Below, piece by piece: positions 1,952 to 63,584 of a stretch of DNA of 64,000 nucleotides. A program made the translations under genes and the position numbers. Below the pieces are notes generated by a model that searched no databases, was not told where the DNA came from, and saw nothing but the letters and a program-made list of their open reading frames with translations. Within the stretch, counting starts at the first letter, position 1. Every line of letters begins with the position of its first letter. Where the stretch lies: the NCBI GenBank assembly GCA_903870365.1, contig CAIQCQ010000034.1, forward strand, positions 2,665-66,664, read 5' to 3'. Source of the stretch: an uncultured bacterium (GTDB taxonomy: Bacteria > Patescibacteriota > Minisyncoccia > Phycocordibacterales > DATDWN01).

Positions 1952-2122
1952 TTTTGAATTTTGAATTTTGAAACAATTTTTAATGATCCAATTTTTAACA
2001 AAACCTATCTAACTATTACTGTATCAAAATACTGTTCTTGAAAAGAAATTGTTTAGCTAGTTCGAAAGATTTTGAAGATTCAGTTATCTTTTCCATATAA
2101 TTTTATTTTTTAAAATAGATAC

Positions 2123-2185
2123 TGGATTCCGGATCCCTAGTAGTAGAGCAAAGCTCACTACGGGACAGGCAAGCTCGGAATGACG
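2123..2185 (+). repeat. REP-like unit with a long central hairpin
   Basis: CTGGATTCC...GCTCACTACGGGAC...GGAATGACG; paralog at 38055-38115. Confidence 0.7.
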
Positions 2186-2222
2186 AAAAAAATATTTTAT
2201 CTTTATGAATAAAGATCGGAAG

Positions 2223-2342
2223 CTTTCATAATTTCGCCAAGATCGCTTATAAAATTTAAAAAAGTGAGGAGGCGTACTTAGCAGTACGATGACGAGGATT
2301 TTTAAATTTTAGAAGATGAGATTGGTGAAATTTGGAAGTTTC
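2223..2342. repeat. Repeat-C copy 1
   Basis: See copy 2; it abuts the 3' end of the FKBP gene. Confidence 0.8.
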
Positions 2343-2345
2343 CAG

Positions 2346-2819
2346 CTATTTTTGGACACTTACAAGCTCAACTTGAAAAACCAATGTAGACCCTCCAGGA
2401 ATGGGGCCGTAGTCGGTTGGGCCATACCCCAACTCCGGCGGTACAGTCAATATACGTGTTCCACCCACCTTCATCCCAATCAAACCCTGATCCCATCCAG
2501 AAATTACTTTTCCTGCACCAAGCACAAAAGTAAATGGTACACCTCGAGCAATAGAACTATCAAATACTTTTCCATCTGTAAATGCACCGACATAATTGAC
2601 CGTAAGCGTCTCGCCCGGAGCAGCCACATCACCGGTACCAAGGACAGTATCCTGAACAACAACTTGTGGAGTGGTTGATGCTACGACGACAGTCTCACCG
2701 CCTGGCAACATACCTGTTCTAAAGATAGACACGAGTAATCCACCAAAGACAAAGAAAAAACCAACAACGACAATACCAACGACCACTGCTATTTTTTCAT
2801 TTCTATTCAAAGTTTTCAT
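2346..2819 (-). CDS. FKBP-type peptidyl-prolyl cis-trans isomerase, membrane-anchored
   Basis: FKBP domain (GETLTVNYVGAFTDGKVFDSS...GVPFTFVLGAGKVISGWDQGLIGMKVGGTRIL); N-terminal TM helix; start taken at the second Met (MKTLNR); ORF track extends to 2852. Confidence 0.8.
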   Translation of the reverse strand: MKTLNRNEKIAVVVGIVVVGFFFVFGGLLVSIFRTGMLPGGETVVVASTTPQVVVQDTVLGTGDVAAPGETLTVNYVGAFTDGKVFDSSIARGVPFTFVLGAGKVISGWDQGLIGMKVGGTRILTVPPELGYGPTDYGPIPGGSTLVFQVELVSVQK

Positions 2820-2834
2820 ATAAAATATTTTAAT

Positions 2835-2866
2835 TCTGGATTGAGGGCTCAAGCCCGGAATGACAG
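2835..2866 (+). repeat. REP-like unit (TCTGGATTG-AGGGCTCAAGCCC-GGAATGACAG)
   Basis: Same flanks, different hairpin. Confidence 0.6.
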
Positions 2867-3067
2867 AAAGGGTTGGTTAATACAAATGTTTTTCGAGAGC
2901 CTATTGACAATCCCATGTCTGAATCAAACTCCAAAATTTTGATCAAAAATCACACAATTCGAGGAAACATATCGAGATACGTTGACGAGAAGTGGACGAT
3001 TTGTAGCCGAAATTTTGGAATTTGAGCAGACAAGCATTAGCCTAAGTCTTGTAAGATGTGTTGAGAT

Positions 3068-4353: not shown

Positions 4354-4575
4354 TTACTTATCCGCCAGCTCTTTTTTGATCTCAGTAAACTCATTCTCTA
4401 TCTCTTTGAGGCGTTCCTTTGAATCCTTTATCAACACTGCACCTTCTTTAATTAGTTCCAGACCCTTCTCGACATCAATCTCTTCTTGATTTTCAAACCA
4501 CGAAACAATTTTTCCCAACTGACTGAGTTTCTCACTGAGATCACCTTTATTTTCTTTGTGTGTTTCTTTTGTCAT
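4354..4575 (-). CDS. xseB: exodeoxyribonuclease VII small subunit
   Basis: 73-aa coiled-coil protein (EKLSQLGKIVSWFENQEE...LELIKEGAVLIK) immediately downstream of xseA. Confidence 0.8.
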   Translation of the reverse strand: MTKETHKENKGDLSEKLSQLGKIVSWFENQEEIDVEKGLELIKEGAVLIKDSKERLKEIENEFTEIKKELADK

Positions 4576-4673
4576 CCCGTTAAAGTTTTAATGAAATTTT
4601 TTAATAATTTAATAGTCTCTGTGATATGCAAATACGTCTACAATAACAATCCTATAGATACAACTCTCATGGG
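4576..4673 (-). mobile_element. MITE-like 98-nt element, copy 1 (TIR CCCGTTARAGTTTTA), inserted at the xseB start codon
   Basis: 15-bp terminal inverted repeats; flanked by direct repeat ATGA(T/C); one of 5 copies. Confidence 0.7.
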
Positions 4674-4674
4674 A

Positions 4675-6012
4675 TCATGTACGTTTCGCATCTATCGTAC
4701 CATCTGCGACCAAAATCTGAAAATCCTCCCCCTCCTTTACATCACTCACCGAACGAACAACCTTGCCACCAGCCCGTGTAATAGACCAGCCAAGCTTGAG
4801 CTGCCGTTCTGGTGAGCGAGCTTCTAGTATTTTTTCATAATTCTCAATCTTATTCTGTACTGTCGTAACCAGTCGGGACGCTGCGGTAAACATGAGCCTG
4901 GTGTCCCGCTCTATATCCACCGTATAGCGAGCAATACTATGAGCGATTCTTTCTTCTGCACGACTCATGTACTGAAAATAATAATTAAACTTTTCAAAAA
5001 TGAGTCGAAAACTTTTTTCCATAATTTGTTCACCTTCTTCAAGCAGATAGATGCTGTCTCGCAGTGCATGTTCAAACGTAGACAATATACTTTGTTCGGC
5101 CAGCCTGACTTGCGATACAGCCTCGCGAAAACCAGCCGACAAAAGATTTGCCACCGCAGTTGGGGTAGAAACATTTTTATCTGAGACCATTCCCACCAGT
5201 GAAATGTCTTTATCATGACCAATACCAGTCAGGACTGGTGCGGGAAACGTGGCCACCGCTCGGACAAGCATCTCATTGTTGAATGCTTGAAATGATTCGA
5301 GCGAACCACCTCCACGCATCATGACCAGGACATCAACTTTTTTTGTGGCGAGTGTTTTAACTGCAGCCAGCAAATCTTTGATCGCTGCATCGCCCTCCAC
5401 TTTTGAATCAACAAAAATAATTTCAAACCCACATTTACCAATATTAGACAAAAAGTCGTTTATAACTGCACCAGATTTGGAAGTAATGACACCGATAGTA
5501 TGTGGGAACTCTGGGATTGGTCGTTTACGAGCCTCATCAAATAAACCTTCGGCTGATAACTTGGCTTTTAATTTCTCATAGGCTATTTGTAATGCACCCT
5601 CACCCACCAGTTCAATACTTTCCACCTGCAGACTAATAGTACCGTTTGGTTTGTATATACTCGGGTAAGCCGTGACAATAACCTCGAGACCGTCCTGTAG
5701 ATCAACTCCTGAAAGACTAAAATCCCGTTTCCACATAAAACAATTCAAGGTACTCTGGTCTACTTTATCCTTAATAGAATAATACAAATAACTCCGACCT
5801 TCGTACATTTTGACACCAGTCACTTCACCAATGATGCGAGCTTTTTGAGATTTCAGATTTTTATTAACCGAGTCAACATATTCTGACACCGACACAATCT
5901 CCTGCCCTACGACTGTCGTAGGCAGTTTCGATGAGAGTGGTTTTTTCACACTCCGTGTGGAAATATCTTTCTCGTTCTGTATGTTATTTTCAATTTCATC
6001 AAATAAATTCAT
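4675..6012 (-). CDS. xseA: exodeoxyribonuclease VII large subunit
   Basis: 445 aa; N-terminal OB-fold; catalytic core motifs MMRGGGSLESFQAFNNE and GIGHDKD. Confidence 0.9.
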   Translation of the reverse strand: MNLFDEIENNIQNEKDISTRSVKKPLSSKLPTTVVGQEIVSVSEYVDSVNKNLKSQKARIIGEVTGVKMYEGRSYLYYSIKDKVDQSTLNCFMWKRDFSLSGVDLQDGLEVIVTAYPSIYKPNGTISLQVESIELVGEGALQIAYEKLKAKLSAEGLFDEARKRPIPEFPHTIGVITSKSGAVINDFLSNIGKCGFEIIFVDSKVEGDAAIKDLLAAVKTLATKKVDVLVMMRGGGSLESFQAFNNEMLVRAVATFPAPVLTGIGHDKDISLVGMVSDKNVSTPTAVANLLSAGFREAVSQVRLAEQSILSTFEHALRDSIYLLEEGEQIMEKSFRLIFEKFNYYFQYMSRAEERIAHSIARYTVDIERDTRLMFTAASRLVTTVQNKIENYEKILEARSPERQLKLGWSITRAGGKVVRSVSDVKEGEDFQILVADGTIDAKRT

Positions 6013-7521: not shown

Positions 7522-7710
7522 AATTTCGAATTTTGAATTTTGAATTTCCAATTTTGACATTGTTTTTTACGAACACAGTGAGTTAGAACTACAAGAAGTA
7601 CCCTTGTGGTAGAAACAAATTAAAATTTCTGAATGATTGGAAACAGCATCTAATTCAAAATTAAATCATTGAAACATTGTTTCAAAATTGGAAATTCGAA
7701 ATTTTACTTT
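7522..7710. repeat. AT-rich intergenic palindromic block: ~40-bp imperfect inverted arms of (AATTTYGAA)-type repeats around a GAGTTAGAACTACAAGAAGTACCCTTGTGG hairpin
   Basis: Arms 7522-7566 vs 7667-7710; the central 30-mer recurs at 13921-13955. Confidence 0.6.
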
Positions 7711-8444
7711 GCCGGTACCAGCTTGCCAGCACACGTAGCACTCGCCCACAATCCAATTCCTCCCTCTCGGGCATATTTTTCTGTTGACCGAAATTCCGCT
7801 TGAAACTGATACGGTTTTTTATATGTGTACTCAAACCCATAGCCTTCTTGAATAATTTCTTCATCCACTAACACATCACCTAAATACACATACCGGAGCC
7901 AGCGACCATATTTATCAACATCATTTTGTGTTGGGTCTGTTTCTAGTCGCACAACGGTATCAGCTGGTAACATATGTTTGAGATATTCTGAGGCTTCTTT
8001 ACCAAAACACTGCACTGGTTTACGAGGATCAACTGTCTCCGGAGTATTCACCCCTATCAAACGGACCGTATGATCACCTCCAACATCACTATGGACGACA
8101 ACAGTATCGCCATCCACCACCCTGGTGACATAGTAACTATGCTCCGGCAATACCGTCTCCTGACTTTGTATGACCGCAGCACTTTGTTCACTCGTAAATG
8201 GTGTATGTGACGACGTATGTACTGCAACAATACTACAAATAAACACAAGGAGTGGGATCGCTATCATCAAAAAATATTTTTTATTCGAGAAATACCCCGT
8301 CAGCTTTGCTGCGGGGATTGGTATAACAGTATCGGCGGAGGCCGATTCTTCTTCAAACACAAAAGCCTGGTCCCGTCCCGCGGATACCTCGTCCCTTGTA
8401 GGGTGAGAATCAACGGGACGAGCTTTTTTATTTTGTCTCATCAT
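7704..8444 (-). CDS. thermonuclease (SNase / micrococcal-nuclease family), membrane-anchored
   Basis: VVDGDTVVVH...VRLIGVNTPE...YGRWLRYVY; the N-terminal 60 aa are encoded by Repeat-B, so the real start may be the Met at ~8265 (MIAIPLL). Confidence 0.75.
   Translation of the reverse strand: MMRQNKKARPVDSHPTRDEVSAGRDQAFVFEEESASADTVIPIPAAKLTGYFSNKKYFLMIAIPLLVFICSIVAVHTSSHTPFTSEQSAAVIQSQETVLPEHSYYVTRVVDGDTVVVHSDVGGDHTVRLIGVNTPETVDPRKPVQCFGKEASEYLKHMLPADTVVRLETDPTQNDVDKYGRWLRYVYLGDVLVDEEIIQEGYGFEYTYKKPYQFQAEFRSTEKYAREGGIGLWASATCAGKLVPAK
8272..8424 (-). repeat. Repeat-B copy 1
   Basis: See copy 2; it overlaps the annotated 5' end of the nuclease ORF. Confidence 0.8.
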
Positions 8445-8475: not shown

Positions 8476-9060
8476 TTGCTGTGTACAACCACAATTATGA
8501 ACAAAAGTGACCAAGACATCATCACCGAATACTTGTCTGGCAATGAAATAGCGTTTAATGAGCTCATCCAGCGATATATGACCTCAGTGTACACTTTTAC
8601 CTATGGATTAACTCATTCTGTCCAAGATGCCGAAGACATCACTCAAGATACCTTTGTTAAAGCCTGGAAAAATATCAAAAAATACGACAAAAAATACACA
8701 TTTAAAACGTGGGTACTGACCATTGCTCGAAATACCACATATGACTTTTTTCGTAAGAAAAAAAACATTCCTTTTTCGGCTTTTGATAATACAGATGGAG
8801 ATAATGTTCTGACAGCTCAGCTTGCAGACGAGCAACCACTTGCTCTGGAAATCAGCGTACTGGCTGAAGACAAGGATATACTCGACACCGCCATCGAACA
8901 ATTACCTCCAGTCTACAAAGAAGTCATCTCCTTGCGATATGGTCAAGATTTGACGTTTGAAGAAATGAGTGTAGTTGTTAAACGCCCACTCAATACAGTC
9001 AAAAGCCAAGTTCGCCGAGGATTAATTGCACTCAAAGAAGTCCTTCGCGCACCAAAATAA
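8476..9060 (+). CDS. ECF-type RNA polymerase sigma factor (sigma-70 family)
   Basis: Region 2 (ITQDTFVKAWKNIKKYD) and region 4 HTH (LTFEEMSVVVKRPLNTVKSQVRRGL). Confidence 0.85.
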   Translation: MLCTTTIMNKSDQDIITEYLSGNEIAFNELIQRYMTSVYTFTYGLTHSVQDAEDITQDTFVKAWKNIKKYDKKYTFKTWVLTIARNTTYDFFRKKKNIPFSAFDNTDGDNVLTAQLADEQPLALEISVLAEDKDILDTAIEQLPPVYKEVISLRYGQDLTFEEMSVVVKRPLNTVKSQVRRGLIALKEVLRAPK

Positions 9061-16846: not shown

Positions 16847-17272
16847 TTAATTTTGTATATTCGTATTAACCTGTTCTTGAACCAAACTCATGTTTTGTTT
16901 TCCTTGTAACCAGATTGTATCAAGAGACCAATCATCTCTGCCATTCAAAAATATAGAGACTGCAGACAGTGCCAAACCAACATCACGCACTGCCACGTCC
17001 CCATACCCCACCGTATAGGCAATATCAAACAAATGAAGAGCAATGATCAGTGCTGTGTACCGAGTGGCTATACCTGCAATCAGAGCGGTGCCAACGACAA
17101 GTTCAAATGCACCATTGAGATATATAAGTACTGTTGGACTAAGGCCAAGCATAGTAGTCCATGTAGGGAGCAAAAACACCCACATCTCTGGATGCAATAT
17201 CTGTTCCACACCAAACCACAGCACAACTAAGGCAATACCGACTCGCACAACGACAGGGGCGTATTTTTTCAT
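16847..17272 (-). CDS. DoxX family membrane protein
   Basis: 141 aa, 4 TM helices, DoxX-like. Confidence 0.7.
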   Translation of the reverse strand: MKKYAPVVVRVGIALVVLWFGVEQILHPEMWVFLLPTWTTMLGLSPTVLIYLNGAFELVVGTALIAGIATRYTALIIALHLFDIAYTVGYGDVAVRDVGLALSAVSIFLNGRDDWSLDTIWLQGKQNMSLVQEQVNTNIQN

Positions 17273-17369
17273 CCCGTTAGAGTTTTAATAAGAATTTTTT
17301 AATAATTAAACAGTCTACAGAGTAAATATACCTGTACTATATTAACCCCTTAGATAAAACTCTAACGGG
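17273..17369 (-). mobile_element. MITE-like 98-nt element, copy 2, inserted at the doxX start codon
   Basis: TIR CCCGTTAGAGTTTTA / TAAAACTCTAACGGG; flanking direct repeat ATGA. Confidence 0.7.
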
Positions 17370-17429
17370 ATCATATGAATATATTATACGCAATATACGT
17401 ATGTAAGTACATTTTGTATGCACACACAT

Positions 17430-27733: not shown

Positions 27734-28759
27734 CTATTTATCTCCTACTATCTCCATCAACGCCAATTCGAGTGGCAGAGACGCAATATATGCTCGAGTA
27801 GTGGCTGTGTACGCATCAAGCAGTTTAACGATCGTATCAGAGCCGACCGTTACATTTGTATCGAGAGCGATTTTTGAGATAAATGCAAAATCATCTTCAG
27901 ACATATCCCCTTTGACCAAATCCTCGGATCCAAAGCGAACAAGCAGCACCGCTCGCATTTTTTGCAACAATAATTTTAATAACACCGACATGTCGAGGTT
28001 GGCTTGTGACGCCTCACGCACAGCATTCAGTCCTTTATGCAAATCCTTTTCAGTAATAGCAGAGACGATAGCGTTGACCAGTTCCCCTTTTGGCGCACCC
28101 GTGACGGTCAAGACGTCTTCATCTGATATTTTTTTCGCCACTGCGGCTGACAACACTTTTTGCAACGTCCCCAATGTATCCCGAAATGATCCATCGCCAA
28201 TGAGGGCGACCAAATCTGCTGACACATCAGACAGCGTATACCCTTCTTTCTTGGCCACACTCAAGACTACTTTTTTTAAAGTCTCTTGGTTTGGTTTACG
28301 AAAAGTATGAACTTCACAACGAGAAAGTATGGTCTCGGGGATCTTGTGTGTCTCGGTCGTAGCCAGGATAAAGATGACATGTTCTGGTGGCTCTTCGAGG
28401 GTCTTCAAAAACGCATTGCTCGCCGACTTGGACAACATATGGACTTCGTCCAGTATGTATACTTTATATTTTGAATCAAATGGCAGTGTGTTGACTGATT
28501 CATTGAGCTCACGAATATCGTCCACCGATGTTTTTGACGCAGCATCTATCTCATAAATGTCGTTTGGTGAGGTGCCCAGCTCTCGAGCCAGGATACGAGC
28601 GATCGAGGTCTTACCGATGCCCCGAGAACCAGCAAACAAATAGGCGTGCCCGACAGTGCCGTTTGTGATCTGAGCTTGTAGTGTTTTAACAATGGCATCT
28701 TGGCCAACAACATCAGTAAATGTATGTGGACGATATTTTCGATAGAGAACTTCTGACAT
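27734..28759 (-). CDS. dnaX: DNA polymerase III subunit gamma/tau (short form)
   Basis: Walker A GSRGIGKTS; LDEVHMLS...EEPPEHVIFILATTE. Confidence 0.85.
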   Translation of the reverse strand: MSEVLYRKYRPHTFTDVVGQDAIVKTLQAQITNGTVGHAYLFAGSRGIGKTSIARILARELGTSPNDIYEIDAASKTSVDDIRELNESVNTLPFDSKYKVYILDEVHMLSKSASNAFLKTLEEPPEHVIFILATTETHKIPETILSRCEVHTFRKPNQETLKKVVLSVAKKEGYTLSDVSADLVALIGDGSFRDTLGTLQKVLSAAVAKKISDEDVLTVTGAPKGELVNAIVSAITEKDLHKGLNAVREASQANLDMSVLLKLLLQKMRAVLLVRFGSEDLVKGDMSEDDFAFISKIALDTNVTVGSDTIVKLLDAYTATTRAYIASLPLELALMEIVGDK

Positions 28760-28814
28760 GAGGATAGTTTAGCATACGAATATCCGAATTGGGAATTTCC
28801 GAATAGTTTTGAAT

Positions 28815-28967
28815 AAAAGCAGCCCTGCCGTCCATCCTCGCAGTAGAACTGACGAGGTATTAGCGGCAGGAACCAGGGCTCTTATATTCGTAGAAGAATC
28901 GGCCTCCGCCGATACTGTTATACCAATCCTCGCTGCAGAGCAGACGAGGTATTTCTCGAATAAAAAA
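28815..28967 (+). repeat. Repeat-B copy 2 (structured ~150-nt element)
   Basis: Reverse-complement match to 8272-8424, with an identical 40-nt core and covarying stems. Confidence 0.8.
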
Positions 28968-28979
28968 AATTTGATTAAA

Positions 28980-29700
28980 AAAAGACCCCCCGCCCGCGTA
29001 CGAGACGCGAGCGAGGGTTTGAGGGAGAAGACTACTGGCAACGAGAGACCGGGGGAGCACCCGGACCACATAGGAGGTTAAACATCAATCGTCCGGGACA
29101 AATATCCCGGACCCGACGAGGTTAGACTTTGCCGGCACCCTGCAGTGCCGCAAACTGATTCGTGTTCGTGCGCTTTGTCATGGTTGTAGGCCCTCCTAAG
29201 AGCCATTCCATTTGTTAGAATATCAAATCAATACATCCTGTCAAATATTTTTTTACAAACTTGTGAACAACTTTTTGCAAAAAGAAAACCGCACTCTTGT
29301 GGAGTGGGTTGTATAGGGCGCCGCATGGAGGAATCATCCAGCGCCCGTATTTGAGAATTCTTCCAAGGGGTTCTTATTCCCTTCTGATCCACTGATTGAT
29401 GTGACCAGATTTGGCAACTTTGCGAAAATTAAAACCGATTGTTCCTGTCGCCAAGGTATCATGGAAAGATTTTGTTGTCAAGTAAATTTTTGCAACAGAA
29501 AACCCCACGTCTTAGGTGGGGGTACTACTCGCTGGCCGGCGACTGTTACCAGGTGATGGTTGTGGTCGCTTGCCCGCGGCCGTCAGGTCGTCGCCGTGGC
29601 GCCGGTGGTGAAGGAAATGAACGTTGTCATATTATGGGTGCCTAGGCGGAGCGTGCGTGCGGACGTGGTCGGCGGACTGTGAAGTCGTATGTATTTCTCC
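28980..29700. ncRNA. ORF-free GC-rich region, candidate large structured RNA(s); identity unresolved
   Basis: About 1.2 kb between dnaX and dus with no ORF over 100 aa; local GC well above the genome background; many stable hairpins; internal repeat TTTTTGCAAnAGAAAACC plus hairpin at ~29270 and ~29487. Confidence 0.4.
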
Positions 29701-29932
29701 TTGTTGTTGACTCGGTACTCTCTTGGTAGCAAAAACAAACAAATGAAAAATGAATCTGGATAGTAGGTTAGCAAACTTCACAGAAATAGTCAAGTGTCAA
29801 ATGCAGAAAAATCAATTTTCTTTTTTATATTTGAAAAATATGGCTTACAATATGGATGCTTTTGGATGGTGGAAAAAATAAGATTTTTTGAGAGTCTCTT
29901 TTTTTCACTTTTGACTTTACGGACTTTCGACT

Positions 29933-30961
29933 TTATAGACTACTCAAGTATTCCCGAATCACCCCCTCCACCTCCCCCGCATTATTACATTCCATCAGTC
30001 TCACCCGCAATTCCTTTGCCCCATCCCACCCATTCACATATGCTTTGAAATGTTTTTTCATCACCGAGAAATTTTTATATGCACACAATTCTTCAAATGC
30101 TTTGGTATGTTCAACCAATACCAATAATCGTTCTTCTGGGGTTCTACTTTTTCTATCACTTGCAAACAACCACGGGTTTCCAAAAATAGCACGGCCAAGC
30201 ATGGCACCGTCGGCCCCCGTTTCTGCACACAGTCTTTTTCCATGTTCAATATCGGTCACGTCGCCATTACCGAGTATCAAGGTTTTTGATTTTAGTTCAT
30301 CACGAATCTCCACTGCACGTTTGATATGTTCCCATCTAGCAGGTACTAATGACATTTCCTTTCGTGTTCGTGCATGTACCGTGATCGCTGCTGGCTCCGC
30401 AGATAATAGTATGGGTAACCATGTTTCAAGTTCATTCTTGTTGTATCCAATGCGAGTTTTAACAGAGACAGGGATCTCTTTCTCCTGCCATTCTTTAATT
30501 TCTTTTTCACTTGTATTTTCCTCTCTTAATTTTTCTATTTTTCTATTTTTATATTCTTCTATACCTCGCTGTGCAGCTTTAATAAGCTCGACAGCGAGAG
30601 GCGGATTTTTGATCAACCCCGCACCAGCACCCTGCTTCTCCACCGACTTATCTGGACAACCCATATTGATATCGATCCCATCAAAACCAAGCTCTACTGC
30701 AAGTTGTGCCGCGCGCTCCATCATATCTGGACGACTGGTGAAAAATTGTGCCACGATCGGTCGCTCACTTTCGGAATATGCAAGATCTTTGATGAGAGAA
30801 TCGTATCCACCCATAAACAGACCATCAGCCGACACAAACTCTGTCCACATCACGTCTGGTTTACCATACGTGGCAATGATACGTCGAAAAGCTGGATCAG
30901 TCACATCTGCCATGGGGGCTAACACAAGTATAGGGTGCTGTAATTTTTTCCAAAAACTCAT
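29933..30961 (-). CDS. dus: tRNA-dihydrouridine synthase
   Basis: VLAPMADVTD...DINMGCP... Confidence 0.85.
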   Translation of the reverse strand: MSFWKKLQHPILVLAPMADVTDPAFRRIIATYGKPDVMWTEFVSADGLFMGGYDSLIKDLAYSESERPIVAQFFTSRPDMMERAAQLAVELGFDGIDINMGCPDKSVEKQGAGAGLIKNPPLAVELIKAAQRGIEEYKNRKIEKLREENTSEKEIKEWQEKEIPVSVKTRIGYNKNELETWLPILLSAEPAAITVHARTRKEMSLVPARWEHIKRAVEIRDELKSKTLILGNGDVTDIEHGKRLCAETGADGAMLGRAIFGNPWLFASDRKSRTPEERLLVLVEHTKAFEELCAYKNFSVMKKHFKAYVNGWDGAKELRVRLMECNNAGEVEGVIREYLSSL

Positions 30962-31090: not shown

Positions 31091-31441
31091 CTAACATTTT
31101 TTATATATTGCATTGAATATAAGATTTAATTCTTTTGCTTCGGTCCAAAGTTTTCTTGCCTCTATTTTTACTTCTGGAACTGCAACAACAGACATTCGTA
31201 AAAAATGCTTTGTTTCTCTAGATTCTTTTTTACAAATACCTATTTTATGTTGAAAATCTTTCCGAGACTCAGCGTCATCAGCTTCACAATAGTTTGCACC
31301 CACACTTGTGCCGCATTTTACTAATTGATTTATAAGAGGTCGTGTAATTTCATTTTTTGGTAAATTTTTACAAAATATAATAATATCTTCACCAAATTTA
31401 GCAGTTCTTTCCTCTAGGTTAAAACGTGACGTACTATCCAT
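31091..31441 (-). CDS. four-helix-bundle protein (TIGR02436; 23S rRNA intervening-sequence protein family)
   Basis: KFGEDIIIFCKNLPK...GTSVGANYCEA...KDFQHKIGICKKESRETKHFLRM. Confidence 0.8.
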   Translation of the reverse strand: MDSTSRFNLEERTAKFGEDIIIFCKNLPKNEITRPLINQLVKCGTSVGANYCEADDAESRKDFQHKIGICKKESRETKHFLRMSVVAVPEVKIEARKLWTEAKELNLIFNAIYKKC

Positions 31442-31477: not shown

Positions 31478-32335
31478 TCATCTCACTTTGTAATATACTT
31501 TATTACCGTATCGTAGATCAATATAATCGACAAGTAACTCTCCATCTTTTTCTGGCACAAGATTTGCTGTCTGTAACAACTTTTGCAGATTAGATGCCGT
31601 TTCAGCGAGTGGAGACTTGGCATCAAAAATAATATAGCCACCACCGTACAAATACATTTCAAAATCATCCTGTGTAGTCGCTACTATATATAGTGGGGTG
31701 ATATTGAGGGCCTTCACGGCTTCAACAAATTGCGACAATTGTCCAAAGGTATCTGATGATGACAAATATGATGAACCAATAGCTGATTCAAATGGCACCA
31801 ACCCATAATATTTAAAATAAGCATCACCAGAAAAGTCTGGGGCTTGAGAAAAAACAAAACCTGTCTTGTCGAGGAAATAACACTGTGGGGCTATAGTCGG
31901 GTCGGTACTCGAAGCAATTTGTTCCGGAGAGAGATTGCACCACAAAGCAGATGGTTGGCGTTCGGTCACAGTCACGCCGATAGTATGATAATTAACCAAA
32001 CTCACAGAGACAGTCTGTATGCGTGGAAATTGCTGTTGGAGAAAAATAGTCAGGCCTTTTCGTGGGTACAATAGCGCATTTTTCTTGCTCAAGACATATA
32101 TATAGTTACCCGAAATATACTGCGAGACAGACTGTTTAATTTGGTCAGGTGACAAGATGACTGTACCAGTCACCTGAACCATATCAATGGATACTTTTGA
32201 CCAGTGAGTTAGGCCAGCAAAGCCAGCAATGAGTATCACGAGTACCACACACCAGAAAGAAACATGTTGAATAAGACGCTTTTTCTTTTTCTCCAAATAA
32301 TCAGGGTTATGATACGTTTGTGATTTTTGAATCAT
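31478..32335 (-). CDS. putative cell division protein FtsQ/DivIB-like (TM plus POTRA-like)
   Basis: N-terminal TM and overall size/architecture; weak. Confidence 0.35.
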   Translation of the reverse strand: MIQKSQTYHNPDYLEKKKKRLIQHVSFWCVVLVILIAGFAGLTHWSKVSIDMVQVTGTVILSPDQIKQSVSQYISGNYIYVLSKKNALLYPRKGLTIFLQQQFPRIQTVSVSLVNYHTIGVTVTERQPSALWCNLSPEQIASSTDPTIAPQCYFLDKTGFVFSQAPDFSGDAYFKYYGLVPFESAIGSSYLSSSDTFGQLSQFVEAVKALNITPLYIVATTQDDFEMYLYGGGYIIFDAKSPLAETASNLQKLLQTANLVPEKDGELLVDYIDLRYGNKVYYKVR

Positions 32336-32433
32336 CCCGTTAGAGTTTTATTGAGGGTCTTCTAATAATCAAATAGTCTACGTGCCAAGAATATATCCAT
32401 ATCATAACAAACTATAGCTAAAACTCTAACGGG
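32336..32433 (-). mobile_element. MITE-like 98-nt element, copy 3, inserted at the start codon of the ftsQ-like gene
   Basis: Perfect 15-bp TIRs; 5-bp direct repeat ATGAT on both sides. Confidence 0.75.
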
Positions 32434-32507
32434 ATCATCTGCTTATTGTATCAAAAATCTCTACTTTCGTAGAGATTTTTGTACTTTCTTCTTCGTAATT
32501 CTTACTT

Positions 32508-40473: not shown

Positions 40474-40624
40474 AATGATCTTCTCCGCAAATAATATTAC
40501 TTAATATATATAAAAAAACAAGTAGAATTTAAAAATTTACTTAGTGATATACACATAACAGTAGAAAATGGTAAGGAAGGACTTTTCCTCAAAAAAACTC
40601 ACACCATCGTGTGAGTTTTTTCTG

Positions 40625-40688
40625 GACACCAGATTGGCGACAAACGCTACTGCGTTCGTAGACCGCTGATTCGTGCAAGTCCCTCATA
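40625..40688 (-). repeat. Repeat-D copy (tRNA-downstream palindromic element)
   Basis: CAGATTGGCGACAAAC...GTTCGTAGACC; family shared with 44551, 55031 and 63446. Confidence 0.75.
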
Positions 40689-44289: not shown

Positions 44290-44550
44290 CTACCAACCTC
44301 CGCAAGCAAGTATACCCACCTCGTAATTTTAAGCAAGAAGGACTTTGTGGGTACAATAGAGTGGATAGTTAAAACCACTAAAATTACTTTATCTTTCTAA
44401 TCAACTCCAAAAATTATTTTATCATGTCTCACAACAACAATGACAGGATAAATTTTTGTATTACCAATTTGTAATAGTCTTTCCATATATTTATATATTT
44501 TTTGGAGAAATCTCCCTCGAAAATTTTGCGCCGTCGCTTAAAATTTTCTG

Positions 44551-44612
44551 GTCACCAGTTTGGCGACAAACTCTGCTGAGTTCGTAGACCACCAAACTGT
44601 TCAATTCCTCGA
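44551..44612 (-). repeat. Repeat-D copy
   Basis: CAGTTTGGCGACAAAC...GTTCGTAGACCACCAAACTG downstream of tRNA-Trp. Confidence 0.75.
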
Positions 44613-46432: not shown

Positions 46433-49144
46433 TTAACCTTCCGTCACTTCACTAACCACAAAGTTTTCCGTCACCCCAGACTTGCGTGGATTCTTCACAT
46501 CAAAAGTAAACTCCATTGCACCATCACCTTTTTTATCCCCTGCTTTGACCGAGACACTCACACGACTACCCTTGCCCATCTTCTTACCCACCATGAGTGA
46601 GGCAATAGGCGTCAAGATTTTGTTTTGAATCAAACGTTTGAGTGGTCGTGCGCCATACTGTGGGTTGTATCCGTCTTTTGCCAACTGCTCCAACACACCA
46701 TCACTCAACTCTAGTCGAATTTCTTTTTCTGCTAGTCGGCGGACCACCAACTCAACCTGGATTTTCACAATATCTTTAATTATTTCTTTGCCCAATACAT
46801 CAAAGACAATAATATCATCGAGACGGTTCAAAAATTCTGGACGGAAATGGTCTTTCAGTGCTTCGAGTACTTTATTTTTTGCTTCTGTGTAATTTGTTTT
46901 TTCTGTTTGTTCACCTTCACCATGGGCATTAAAGCCAATTTTTTCCATACGATCAATGTACTGCCCACCAATGTTTGAGGTCAGGATGATTACCGTATTG
47001 CGAAAGTTCACTACTCGTCCCTTGGCATCGGTCAGTTTACCGTTGTCGAGGACTTGTAACAAAATATTAAAGACTTCTGGATGGGCCTTTTCTATCTCAT
47101 CAAAGAGAATAACTGAATATGGTCGATGACGCACGGATTCGGTAAAATTACCTGAATCATCGTGGCCAACATATCCTGGAGGTGCGCCGATCAATTTACT
47201 AACGGAATGTTTTTCCATAAATTCTGACATATCGACACGGATCAGCGCTTTGTCGTCGTCAAACATAAACTCAGCCAATGCTTTGGTTAGCTCGGTCTTG
47301 CCCACACCAGTCGGACCAAGGAAGAGGAACGAACCAATTGGTCGGTTTGGATCAGCAATACCGACACGAGAACGCTTGATAGTGTCCGAAATCTTCTTGA
47401 CTGCTTCTACTTGACCGACAATGCGTTCTCGCAAAACTTCTTCCATGCGGTGGAGCTTGTCTGCTTCTTGCTCAAGCATGCGGGAGACCGGCACACCAGT
47501 CCATTTGGAAACAATACGGGCAATATCATCTGCGGTGACTTCTTCTTTCAAGATGCGTCGTGATGACTGCAATTTCTTCAATCGCTTTACACGCAAATCC
47601 AATTCTTTTTCTGTTGCAGGAATAGTACCGTAGCGGATTTCTGCCGCCTTTGCCAAATCCACTCGCGCTTCTGCCGAGTCGGCGTCAAGGCGCAGTTCCT
47701 CCAACTTTTTTTTGATTATTTTAATCTCTACCACCACCTCTTTTTCGTTTTTCCATTTCAAATCAATCTCACCAGTCTTGTCTTTCAAATCTGCGATGGC
47801 TTTTTGAATCTCCGTCACACGAGCCTTTGATTTTAAATCAGTTTCTTTTTTCAAAGCCTCTCGTTCGATTTCAAGTTTGACCAAGGCTGAATGTGCTTCT
47901 TGCAATACTGGTGGCATATTTTCCAAAGCAATCTTTAAATACGATGATGCTTCGTCAATCAAATCCACTGCTTTATCTGGCAAAAATCTATCAGTAATAT
48001 ATCGTGCAGAGAGGTTGACCGCAGCTACAATTGCTTCGTCGGTAATGTGAACACCGTGATACAACTCGTACTTTTCTTTTAATCCACGGAGGATAGTGAC
48101 TGCATCATCAATCGATGGCTCGTTGACATAGACCGGCTGGAAACGTCGTGACAAAGCTGGATCCTTTTCAATATGTTTCTGATATTCACGTAAAGTCGTC
48201 GCGCCAATAGCTCGCAGTTCTCCGCGGGCAAGGGCTGGCTTCAACATATTTGATGCATCGAGAGATCCTTCGGCCGCACCTGCACCCACCAGGGTATGCA
48301 ATTCGTCGATAAACAAGACAATTTTACCGTCAGATTTTTCAATTTCTTTTAAAATATTTTTCAATCGTTCTTCAAATTCACCACGGTATTTGGTACCAGC
48401 TACGAGGAGGCCAAGATCAAGTGAGACCAACTCTTTATCTTTGAGTGATTCTGGTACATCGCCCATAGACATACGAATAGCCAAGCCCTCAGCAATAGCA
48501 GTCTTGCCCACACCAGCTTCACCAATCAAGATGGGATTATTTTTCGTTCGTCGAGATAATATTTGTACAATACGCGAGATCTCTTCTTCACGACCAATAA
48601 CTGGATCAAGTTTGTTCTGCTGAGCAAGCTTGGTGAGTGATCGAGTGTACTTTGATAATGCTTTAAATTTTTTGGGTGAAGATATTTCTTCGTTTTTCTT
48701 TGTTCTGATTTCTTCTACCACCTGCATGACTTGTGGTTTGGTCAATTTAAATCGAGACAGTAAATCACGAGCGACACCAGGAATTTCTAGTGCAGAGATA
48801 AACAAATGTTCTGTAGAAACAAATTCATCGTTCATTTCTCGAGCGATCTTGGCTGAGTTTTCAATCATCTGGGCCAACTCAGGAGTCAGATAAATCTGAT
48901 ACGACGGTGACAAAGTTTGTCCGGCATCAGTCCCCTCGATAGCTTCAATGAGTGAGTCAGTGAGTAAAATAGTATCTATTTCCAGTCGATCAAGCAGTGA
49001 AGGAACAATTGATTCCTCTTGCAAGACAAGGGCCGTCAACAAATGTAGTGGTGAGACGTGGTTTTGACCACGTTCAATAGCCAGCTCGTGTGCTCGGCGA
49101 ATGGCTTCTTTTGCTTTTGTGGTGAAATTATTAAATGGAGGCAT
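46433..49144 (-). CDS. clpB: ATP-dependent chaperone ClpB
   Basis: 903 aa; two AAA+ modules (GEAGVGKTA; GPTGVGKTE) with a long middle coiled coil. Confidence 0.9.
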
Positions 49145-49320: not shown

Positions 49321-50148
49321 CTACTTCGCCACTTGGATCGACTGCAAATCCTGTTTAATAATGGCCGAGGGCAGATATGATTTTGTTGAAGCAAATTCCG
49401 ACAATGATATGCCGATGACATTACCTGATAATGACAAAATAGGGGCACCAGAAACAGCATCGATAGGACTGACATCCCCTTCTACTGAAGATACGGACTT
49501 GGTGGCTGGTGTGGTGCTTGAAGCTGCCGTTTCTTTCATAGTGAGATACGCCACCCGACCCACAGCTACCGCATTACTACTGTCTCCACCAATTGATATA
49601 ATAGTCTGTCCAAGCTGGGCATCATTAACATCCAAAGTAGCTGGTGTAAATGTATACGGCTTCACTGGTTTTGCTTTAAAAAAAGAAACTTGCCATTTTT
49701 TATCTCCGGCAATAGCTACCAATGGAATAGTTACTCCATCTGAAGTCAGTGCCACATAATTCATAACTGGGGAAATATATTGTTTGTCTGCTACAACAAT
49801 ACCGTCACTCGAGATAATTACGCCGAGACTGTACAAGTTGTCGACACTCCCATCTGCATTTTGTTCACGAATACGAACAATCGATGGCGTATTTTTAGCG
49901 ATAGATGAGGTGACACTGTCATCCTCGTTGACCACCACAGTGGTGGTCTGTTTTCCTGTATTTGTACCAGTCACGGCCGCTGGGGTCACAGTCTCGATAG
50001 TTTTCTCTACTACTTGATTAACGGTCTTGGTTAGCTCCACTGGTGCTTGCATGAGCAAAGAGGTGGTCATGATACCGGTAGCAATAGATACGACAAAAGA
50101 GATGAGGATACAGAGGAGAATAATTTGATGTTTGTTGAGATCGTCCAT
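49321..50148 (-). CDS. membrane-anchored trypsin-fold (HtrA/DegP-like) protein, catalytic His apparently absent
   Basis: SLGVIISSDGIVVADKQYI (cf. GSGVII..GY.VTNNHV) and VSGAPILSLSGNVIGI (cf. GNSGGPL..G.VIGI). Confidence 0.4.
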   Translation of the reverse strand: MDDLNKHQIILLCILISFVVSIATGIMTTSLLMQAPVELTKTVNQVVEKTIETVTPAAVTGTNTGKQTTTVVVNEDDSVTSSIAKNTPSIVRIREQNADGSVDNLYSLGVIISSDGIVVADKQYISPVMNYVALTSDGVTIPLVAIAGDKKWQVSFFKAKPVKPYTFTPATLDVNDAQLGQTIISIGGDSSNAVAVGRVAYLTMKETAASSTTPATKSVSSVEGDVSPIDAVSGAPILSLSGNVIGISLSEFASTKSYLPSAIIKQDLQSIQVAK

Positions 50149-50248
50149 CCCGTTAGAGTTTTAATGAAAACCTTCTAATAATAAAATAGTTTACGTAGTA
50201 AAAAATATATGTACATACTATCAATCCCATAGATAAAACTCTAACGGG
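50149..50248 (-). mobile_element. MITE-like element, copy 4, inserted at the start codon of the 49321 gene
   Basis: Perfect TIRs; both flanks are ATGG (TSD-like). Confidence 0.75.
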
Positions 50249-50300
50249 ACCATAGCGTGTTAAGTATAACAAATCTACATCTCAAAGCCCAAACGTCAAA

Positions 50301-55030: not shown

Positions 55031-55098
55031 TTGTGTTGGGAATCGAACAGATTGTCGGTCTACGCTCACACCAGTGAGTGTCGACAATCTGGTGCCCA
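55031..55098 (+). repeat. Repeat-D copy (10-bp stem CAGATTGTCG / CGACAATCTG)
   Basis: Preceded by an A6CC..GGT6 hairpin; lies between two perfect 26-bp copies of the tRNA-Leu 3' end (54961-54986 and 55136-55161). Confidence 0.8.
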
Positions 55099-55169
55099 GA
55101 AATATTCAAGCGACGGCGAGAACATTTCGAGGGAGACTCCCATCCCAGGCACTAGAAAATACTTTCACA

Positions 55170-63445: not shown

Positions 63446-63516
63446 TTTGTGTGGGAGACTTGAACAGATTGTCGGTCTACGCTCGTACCAACAAGTGTCG
63501 ACAATCTGGCGACTAG
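63446..63516 (+). repeat. Repeat-D copy
   Basis: GAACAGATTGTCGGTCTACGCTC...TGTCGACAATCTGG; same preceding-hairpin architecture as the 55031 copy. Confidence 0.8.
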
Positions 63517-63584
63517 AATTTTTTAATTTGACGAAATTAAAAAATTCGGTGGCTAGTCCCCCTCACCCCCACCCCCCACACCCA

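Follow-up and report, generated by a model that had tools for sequence, protein, structure and literature searches.

What occupies the interval between dus and dnaX at positions 28760-29932 of a 64-kb stretch of DNA (the window) from an uncultured bacterium (contig CAIQCQ010000034.1)? Both flanking genes lie on the minus strand, dus at 29933-30961 (domain match Dus) and dnaX at 27734-28759 (domain matches DNA_pol3_delta2/AAA). The original prediction described the interval as free of open reading frames (ORFs) longer than 100 amino acids (aa) and as a candidate for a large structured RNA of the GOLLD, ROOL or HEARO type. The first part stands: the longest ORF touching the interval has exactly 100 aa (28769-29071, minus strand) and spans a terminator hairpin and the structured element Repeat-B, while the others reach at most 90 aa. 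The ten longest ORFs contain no Pfam domain (E ≤ 1) and no gene is called in the dus-dnaX gap of public assemblies with an identical DnaX, in line with a locus of RNA genes and not of a protein. The proposal of one large RNA fails in this window, because two internal promoter/terminator pairs cut the interval into three units of 169-264 nt on the minus strand, the opposite of the strand on which the prediction had been read. On the evidence of the sequence, the interval is probably a fast-evolving island of three tandem, autonomous and highly expressed genes for small RNAs (sRNAs) or small ORFs on the minus strand, whose function we infer; we refer to them, in the direction of transcription, as U1, U2 and U3.

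The division into units starts from the promoters. Scanning both strands with the strict pattern TTGAC[AT]-N16/17-TGnTAnnnT, we found exactly three matches in the window (128 kb of strand), all of them within the interval, compared with 0.24 ± 0.49 in shuffled sequences. The U1 promoter (29765-29793, minus strand) consists of TTGACT, a 17-nt spacer and a TG-extended TAACCT, the U2 promoter (29453-29481, minus strand) of TTGACA, a 17-nt spacer and a TG-extended TACCTT, and the U3 promoter (29217-29244, minus strand) of TTGACA, a 16-nt spacer and a TG-extended TATTCT, thereby agreeing with 10 of 12 consensus positions in addition to the TG. In 14 related loci (128 kb) the pattern occurs 14 times, always in the dus-dnaX gap and on the dnaX strand, and not once in the remaining 115 kb. 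An orthologue of the U1 promoter is present in three relatives (loci L084, L085 and L087), and the U2 promoter resembles the relatives' dus-proximal promoter AAAAnTGCTTGACAA. The tRNA, LOOT RNA, dnaX and protein genes of the same genome mostly carry an extended -10 element only. Since the full-consensus promoters in ~190 kb of Paceibacteria sequence all fall in the dus-dnaX gap, the transcripts are probably among the most abundant of the cell.

Between positions 28500 and 30200, six terminator-like sites were found where 1.7 ± 1.5 are expected; the minus strand carries five of the six. The terminator scan assigns to U1 a hairpin at 29521-29503, CCCCACCTAAGACGTGGGG, followed by TTTTCTG with the tail TTTTCTGTTG (terminator 29495-29521, minus strand), to U2 a hairpin followed by GGTTTTCTTTTTG (29306-29292, minus strand), and to U3 a 13-bp hairpin with 10 G-C pairs followed by T7 (29017-28987, minus strand). 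Each terminator lies 170-270 nt downstream of a promoter, and the order on the minus strand, promoter-terminator three times over, resolves the interval into U1, U2 and U3, followed by Repeat-B and the dnaX promoter. In silico, all three units have two of the features expected of an independent sRNA gene, a promoter of their own and a 3' intrinsic terminator.

This architecture also recasts the compositional features on which the original prediction was built. The GC content of the entire window is 40.9%, and the claim of 60-65% GC is borne out for 29500-29690 (61.8%), with 28981-29215 falling slightly below (57.4%); these are two of just three 200-nt segments in the 64 kb with at least 56% GC, the units contain the richest of them, and the spacers between the GC-rich bodies are AT-rich (31-39% GC). 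Both hairpins named in the prediction are present, GTCCGGGA..TCCCGGAC at 29091-29112 and GGGCGC..GCGCCC at 29316-29346. The reported duplication of TTTTTGCAAnAGAAAACC is likewise real (29269-29290 and 29484-29505; four overlapping or mismatched matches to the pattern, 0.57 expected), but the two copies are not a structural module: read on the minus strand, each is a hairpin plus GGTTTTCTnTTGCAAAAA and forms the tail of an intrinsic terminator, in one case that of U1, which the prediction had read as the reverse complement.

Comparison with relatives places the island in a limited clade. DnaX assigns the organism to the Paceibacteria (Parcubacteria), its best species-level genome match being a Zambryskibacteria metagenome-assembled genome at 65% identity. 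The dus-dnaX synteny is widespread, and in several more distant lineages (L007, L008, L009, L011, L016 and L039) the two genes are only 40-80 nt apart. A gap of 0.5-1.4 kb is kept in all 11 fetched relatives with a DnaX identity of at least 72% (L084, L085, L087, L088, L090, L091, L092, L174, L175, L176 and L177). At lower identity, the gap measures 0.65-1.6 kb in L004/L094 and L096 (64-65%) and ~0.3 kb in L095 (67%), and in the more distant L005, L010, L013 and L021 it measures 0.2-1.1 kb. In the relatives, the gap comprises one, two or three similar units running from promoter to terminator, whose order and content vary between close relatives. Against the loci with 83-85% DnaX identity, the alignable parts are a ~150-nt AT-rich region with the U1 promoter, the region of the U1 Shine-Dalgarno (SD) sequence and start, and the 3' end of U2. 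Within the window, U1-U3 have no extra copies and are not paralogues of one another; blastn and nhmmer comparisons of the units with the relatives gave matches limited to the promoter and the terminator module. Other kinds of sequence are found in the gaps as well. That of L096 contains, on the opposite strand, a 334-aa ORF with an HTH_38 domain (1991-2995, minus strand), possibly a transposase, that of L006 a 470-aa Big_2-domain protein (4527-5939, plus strand), making the dus-dnaX gap an insertion site for protein genes, and that of L017 small protein ORFs of ~65-80 aa.

The unit with the clearest homology is U2 (29278-29446, minus strand), a predicted non-coding sRNA of ~169 nt with no SD sequence or start codon inside. 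Nearly all of U2 can be aligned with the 3' ~165 nt of L085's long first unit (local alignment score 26 compared with 9.9 ± 1.6 for shuffles, z 9.8). Its conserved 3' module (29284-29348, minus strand) comprises a GC hairpin, GGGCGCTG..CGGCGCCC (29346-29316), an unpaired, CA-rich linker, TATACAACCCAC (29315-29304), and the terminator with its T-run. The module occurs in nine loci, with a GC hairpin of the form GGG...CCC, an unpaired, G-free and CA-rich linker (consensus AACACAACCCAC) and a terminator. Across eight distinct sequences, the 7-bp basal stem is paired in 55 of 56 cells and three of its pairs covary, pair 4 alternating between C-G and A-T and pair 6 taking five pair types. The MAFFT alignment of the module was poor and the stems were extracted by motif anchoring; because this alignment is anchored on the motif itself, it is biased towards pairing. 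Matches to the CA motif at 46660 and at 10335 of L091 lie inside coding sequence and were set aside as chance.

The long unit with which U2 aligns measures ~555-600 nt in L084/L085 and folds with 79 RNAalifold pairs, eight of which show compensatory double changes, and in L176 and L087 U1-type and U2-type parts are fused into one unit of 520-610 nt. The near-full-length alignment with the L085 unit and the shared 3' module make U2 a descendant, shortened and under its own promoter, of a larger structured RNA that sister lineages have. The large-RNA proposal therefore has a counterpart in the single structured unit of L084/L085, of whose 3' end U2 is a shortened homologue.

U1 (29495-29758, minus strand) is predicted to be an RNA of ~264 nt (54.5% GC) that combines a small ORF with a structured 3' untranslated region (UTR). 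The AT-rich region 5' of its promoter (29759-29905, minus strand) has blastn matches in L084, L085 and L087 (E 1e-7 to 2e-15) and is better conserved than the transcript itself; it is probably an UP-element or a binding region for a regulator. Within the transcript, the SD sequence AAGGAG (29702-29697, minus strand) is followed after 6 nt by ATA and a tiny ORF (29690-29583, minus strand; (I)RLHSPPTTSARTLRLGTHNMTTFISFTTGATATT*) that begins ATA CGA CTT CAC AGT CCG CCG, and an internal ATG at 29630 would yield a 15-aa peptide. At the same position, the relatives have MKNMHSPP.. (MKNMHSPPGAKTPTLNTNGTVKYSFTGTTKLARIAAI*) in L087, MNHSPPFG... in L084, MRHRQCPFG...ISTTITFAGSGA... in L085 and MRHR.. 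(MRHRFTFRAPRD...) in L176. The SD sequence, the N-terminal HSPP and the C-terminal SFT(T)G motifs recur in L087, L084 and L085, in a set of sequences that are few, short and GC-biased. Indels among the U1-type ORFs keep the frame, and codon families switch synonymously (for Ser, from AGT in this genome to TCA/TCG in the relatives; for Leu, from CTC to TTG in L087), both of which favour translation. We consider the U1 ORF weakly conserved; the peptides of U1 and its relatives match no Pfam or NCBIfam family.

Downstream of the ORF, the U1 3'-UTR hairpin (29531-29582, minus strand; inner stem GCGAC/GTCGC) is also found in L088, L091 and L175, in the form CCGCCGG-TGT-GCGAC...GTCGC-CAT-CGGCGG, and its version in L092, GCAAC/GTTGC, contains one compensatory pair. 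A different SD-led micro-ORF, ending in ..FRAPRD(V/D)HL*, is found in L091 (5700-5790), L092 (5690-5770) and L175 (3720-3800), where it has 14-16 aa, and in L176 (3580-3700), where it has 38 aa. Among these four loci, all three substitutions in its block TTC CGG GCA CCT CGG GAT are third-position and synonymous, which favours translation; the block can alternatively fold as a hairpin, which speaks against it. The RAP-containing motif faintly recalls the RAPP/RAGP ribosome-arrest peptides and has no counterpart in the window.

U3 (28978-29210, minus strand) is predicted to span ~233 nt (57.5% GC). The SD sequence AGGAGG (29197-29192, minus strand) lies 10 nt before an ATG at 29181 that opens a 19-aa ORF, MTKRTNTNQFAALQGAGKV; the frame also opens at an ATG at 29211, 5 nt past the -10 element, giving 29 aa. 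The SD sequence could be sequestered in two ways, by a local hairpin (GGCUCU/AGGGCC) or by a downstream CCUCCUA. The ORF is followed by three GC hairpins (including that at 29112-29091), an unpaired C/U-rich stretch, CUUCUCCCUCAAACCCUC, and the very strong terminator. We compared U3 with 32 related loci by blastn, nhmmer and a single-sequence covariance model and found no homologue; as judged from these searches, U3 is lineage-specific or diverged past recognition. Pairing of the U1 terminator loop with the U3 SD region, suggested by an inverted repeat, was rejected since 157 of 300 shuffles give an equally good duplex energy. A role of the units as a sponge for the anti-SD sequence was also dropped, because AAGGAG/AGGAGG occur throughout the window, AAGGAG for example preceding a 71-aa ORF (27684-27469) that comes right after dnaX.

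Between U3 and the dnaX promoter lies the copy of Repeat-B that the original prediction had placed next to the interval, here located at 28812-28972 (minus strand). It folds into a three-hairpin junction and a long terminator-like hairpin with a T-run (z -5.6; none of 200 shuffles is equally stable). A second copy (8272-8432, plus strand; 81% identity over 163 nt, z -3.6) has the same junction-plus-terminator fold, kept by compensatory changes (CCTCG/CGAGG to CCCCG/CGGGG and CTGC/GCAG to CAGC/GCTG), and is situated between an SNase-like gene (7704-8270, minus strand) and an extracytoplasmic-function (ECF) sigma-factor gene (8476-9060, plus strand) in the orientation of the latter. A short copy is present just 5' of dnaX in L096. 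Since both copies in the window lie directly 5' of a gene, Repeat-B could be a cis-regulatory or insulator element, and it probably adds a second stop for transcription leaving the island. At the other end of the interval, a 16-nt tandem repeat, ACTTTCGACTTTACAG x 2.2 (29907-29941, plus strand), overlaps the dus stop codon; similar strings, GACTTTACGGACTT(T/G)..GACT, occur just 5' of dnaX in L091, L092 and L175 in the opposite orientation relative to the genes. Beyond this repeat, no tandem-repeat array (TIGR/CRISPR-like) was found.

The dnaX gene has an extended -10 promoter of its own, TGCTAAACT (28766-28774, minus strand; read from the sequence), 6 nt before its ATG, with the same arrangement in L004, L088 and L091, and no SD sequence is evident within 45 nt 5' of the gene. 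With this spacing the dnaX mRNA would be leaderless or nearly so. Across the window, an extended -10 element (TGnTAnnnT) ends 6-10 nt before the ATG in 11 of 56 long ORFs, and an SD-like motif within 18 nt of the start precedes just 4 of 56 ATG-first long ORFs, both counts relying on naive start assignment. The recurrence of an extended -10 element 6-9 nt from the ATG suggests that leaderless mRNAs are widespread.

As a plausible mechanism, each unit would be transcribed separately and abundantly, in the same direction as dus and dnaX, from a sigma-70 promoter with a -35 element TTGACA/T and a TG-extended -10 element. U2 would act in trans through its single-stranded CA-rich linker, by base pairing or protein binding. 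U1 and U3, each combining an SD sequence and a 15-35-aa frame with a 3' UTR in which stable hairpins take up ~100 nt, would be dual-function sRNAs or micro-protein mRNAs. Repeat-B with its terminator-like hairpin would insulate dnaX from the island, and dnaX would be expressed independently, from its own promoter and as a near-leaderless mRNA, so that the island would not be its leader. In evolutionary terms, an RNA island appears to have been inserted into an otherwise tight dus-dnaX junction in one clade of the Paceibacteria, the three-unit array being its local version.

Several observations weigh against this model. The transcribed parts cannot be aligned even at 83-85% DnaX identity, so selection is either weak or acts on structure or mere presence. 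The fold z-scores are modest (-1.8 for U1, -3.3 for U2 and -2.5 for U3, relative to dinucleotide shuffles). The promoters, the terminators and the transcripts that they would bound are predictions from consensus matches. The U1 ORF starts with ATA where L084, L085 and L087 have ATG, the U1-type peptides range from 14 to 49 aa in length, and the amino-acid composition of the U1 peptide could merely mirror GC richness. To these we add the absence of a U3 homologue among the 32 loci. The covariation in the GC hairpin and the terminators proves hairpins, not function; the trans-acting role of U2 is putative.

Searches for a known identity came up empty. Within 28760-29932 no Rfam family reaches its gathering threshold, and a search of 1.5 kb at E ≤ 10 returned just four chance-level matches of 14-25 bits (thresholds 41-55); the Rfam search that had been proposed as a check thus yields no family that explains the interval. 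The statement that none of the standard RNAs (RNase P RNA, transfer-messenger RNA (tmRNA) or signal recognition particle (SRP) RNA) is present agrees with these searches and with ARAGORN, which finds no tRNA or tmRNA. In the relatives' gaps, no Rfam family was detected in 19 loci (8 searched at E ≤ 5 and 11 at the gathering threshold). A CsrA/RsmA sponge was rejected as well, GGA not being enriched (110 occurrences in 21 units, 126 ± 8 in dinucleotide shuffles). As far as the catalogued families go, U1, U2 and U3 would be new families of a known kind.

Which other explanations could account for such a locus? One, which we regard as unlikely, is that the gap holds a new class of large structured RNA of the candidate phyla radiation (CPR), very highly expressed and fast-evolving, intact in sister lineages and split here into separately promoted pieces, with U2 as its 3' module; the single transcripts of those lineages would measure ~555-600 nt (L084/L085), ~520-610 nt (L176/L087) and ~470 nt (the Zambryskibacteria locus L004). 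If true, the class would possibly contain an embedded micro-ORF and might work as part of a ribonucleoprotein or stand in for a housekeeping RNA at what was ancestrally the ffs-dnaX site. We regard it as unlikely, too, that peptides are the sole functional products, U1 and U3 being fast-evolving micro-protein mRNAs with hairpins as stabilisers or terminators and U2 a decayed remnant. The SD-like AAGGAG/AGGAGG 5-9 nt before a start position in U1 and U3, and before tiny ORFs of L010, L084, L085, L087, L176 and L177, would fit, as would the uniformly synonymous substitutions of the FRAPRD block, the synonymous Ser/Leu codon-family switches between the window and L087 and the ~65-80-aa ORFs in the L017 gap; but U1 has no ATG or other standard start codon here, U2 lacks SD sequence and start codon yet keeps a covarying 3' module in nine loci, conservation in the L091-type unit is equally high inside and outside its hairpin-capable ORF block, and the peptides match no family. 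That the interval is a single structured non-coding RNA of ~1 kb and of a new class, with incidental internal promoter and terminator sites, seems very improbable. A long GC-rich intergenic region in an AT-rich genome, the single 520-610-nt units of L084, L085, L087 and L176 and the compensatory changes in L084/L085 are what such an RNA would predict, whereas three full-consensus promoters alternating with three strong terminators far above chance, AT-rich spacers between the GC blocks, differing unit order and content in close relatives and the lack of a match to any large-RNA model are not; its transcript would have to cross the 13-bp terminator with its T7 run.

The position of the island raises two further options, both of which we hold to be highly improbable. 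Bacillus subtilis has the arrangement scr-dnaX, and in Bacillus as in many other bacteria the slot directly before dnaX is that of ffs/scr. One unit could accordingly be a highly divergent housekeeping RNA (SRP RNA or 6S RNA) in this slot, being upstream of and co-directional with dnaX and having an exceptionally strong promoter, as expected of abundant stable RNAs, in a 64-kb window with no canonical SRP, 6S or RNase P RNA. Against it, neither SRP, 6S, RNase P nor tmRNA models match here at E ≤ 10 or in eight relatives' loci at E ≤ 5, the sequences cannot be aligned at 84% DnaX identity, unlike those of housekeeping RNAs, many Paceibacteria have no gap between dus and dnaX, and the unit folds contain neither a GNRA-capped helix-8-like motif nor a rod-like 6S fold. 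The units could also work in cis, as leaders through which read-through controls dnaX, be they leader-peptide attenuators or a riboswitch. The Thr-rich U1 ORF (11 of 35 residues), which like a thr-type attenuator has GC hairpins and a terminator behind it, the U1-type unit directly upstream of dnaX in L084, L085, L091, L092 and L175 and the junction-plus-terminator shape of Repeat-B 5' of two genes speak for this; in the window, however, what comes after U1 and after U2 is another promoter and not a gene, inspection found no antiterminator alternative to the 5' arm of the U1 terminator, the Thr richness is absent from the relatives' peptides, and with the -10 element of dnaX 6 nt from its ATG and no evident SD sequence in the 45 nt upstream, read-through transcripts would translate dnaX poorly. 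We give the least credence to the second suggestion of the original prediction, a degraded gene, and to a related option, the scar of a mobile element, either of them with no present function. The variable gap with its fast turnover of content (the helix-turn-helix-domain ORF of L096, the Big_2 protein of L006) and the repeats flanking the units, Repeat-B and the 16-nt tandem repeat, could be seen in this light, but in addition to the lack of Pfam matches among the ten longest ORFs, tblastn with the relatives' gap proteins gives a best E of 0.23, no viral-contig match was found (no IMG/VR match to the U1 promoter block or the U2 module, so that a phage origin was also rejected), and intact consensus promoters, SD sequences and terminators are kept in every lineage examined, which is not what neutral decay would leave. 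The island of three autonomous units thus remains the reading that we prefer.

In its architecture, the proposed island resembles several known systems. U1 and U3 are similar to the dual-function sRNAs SR1/SR1P of B. subtilis, RNAIII/hld of S. aureus and SgrS/SgrT of E. coli in having ~200-500 nt, their own promoter and terminator, a predicted tiny, SD-led ORF and hairpins outside the ORF. The likeness to SR1, RNAIII and SgrS is one of architecture, with no homology in sequence or structure; U1 lacks a canonical start, translation of U1 and U3 is predicted, and no target pairing region was identified in either. The array as a whole recalls the tandem sRNA clusters LhrC1-5 of Listeria, the streptococcal csRNAs and Qrr of Vibrio, in which head-to-tail genes in one intergenic region each have a promoter and a rho-independent terminator, and it shares with them an unpaired pyrimidine- or C-rich stretch beside the terminator (the C/U-rich stretch of U3 and the CA-rich linker of U2). 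Here, too, the likeness is architectural and not homology, as U1-U3 are not paralogues and share no seed. With the SRP RNA gene (scr/ffs) of Bacillus and other bacteria, the island shares its position and orientation relative to dnaX and a high predicted expression, but U1-U3 have no SRP domain-IV motif or model match, evolve far faster and sit in a gap that many Paceibacteria lack. GOLLD, ROOL, HEARO/omega-RNA, OLE and raiA were likewise found as long GC-rich intergenic regions in AT-rich genomes, and the ~555-600-nt unit of the sister lineages with its compensatory changes is reminiscent of them; the differences are the missing covariance-model match, the three short units of this window and the absence of an associated IscB/HNH gene. 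With the thr/his/trp leader attenuators, U1 has in common a tiny Thr-rich ORF followed by GC hairpins and a terminator, but it has neither a downstream structural gene nor an antiterminator, and another promoter follows.

Other elements of the window deserve a brief description. Adjoining dus, a gene of the 23S rRNA-intervening-sequence protein family (31091-31441, minus strand; PF05635, E 6.5e-12) belongs to a family that includes the Avd-like four-helix-bundle accessory proteins of diversity-generating retroelements; neither a reverse transcriptase nor a template/variable repeat pair was seen in its neighbourhood, and L087 has a PF05635-type gene elsewhere. The sole non-tRNA Rfam family in the window is a full-length LOOT RNA (RF03000; 59197-59316, minus strand; 90.2 bits, gathering threshold 46.4) with an extended -10 element, TGATATGAT, ~26 nt upstream and a hairpin and T-run downstream. 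A repeated element of ~100-150 nt occupies divergent intergenic regions at 17237-17387, 32300-32451, 50146-50266 and 4540-4691. In at least four genes (17272, 32335, 35560 and 50148) its motif AAAACTCTAACGGG directly adjoins the ATG, with the variant TACTCTAACGGAT at dus (30961). In a genome whose long ORFs seldom have an SD sequence, the motif may serve as a common 5' leader or as a signal for translation initiation. Finally, a structured element of ~60 nt, GGTCTACG-hairpin-GTCGNCAATCTGGTGNCCAG, is present in four copies (55040-55109 and 63457-63526 on the plus strand, 40618-40682 and 44544-44608 in reverse), three of them just downstream of tRNA genes (55208, 40745 and 44635); the two repeat families to which these copies belong are mutual reverse complements.

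Next to nothing has been charted of the sRNAs in the candidate phyla radiation (Patescibacteria), and a transcriptome paper on TM7x, the best-studied cultured member, speaks of "no currently validated small RNAs" (bioRxiv 10.1101/2022.03.25.485537). If U1-U3 are not transcribed, the interval is merely an unusual intergenic spacer; as it stands, the locus offers testable candidates. The U2-type 3' module, with its GC hairpin, CA-rich linker and terminator, is a reusable handle for finding the family elsewhere, and the fusion, splitting and reordering of units between lineages show the evolution of RNA genes in reduced genomes. If confirmed, the island would supply metatranscriptomics with markers and give access to the post-transcriptional regulation of episymbiotic bacteria.

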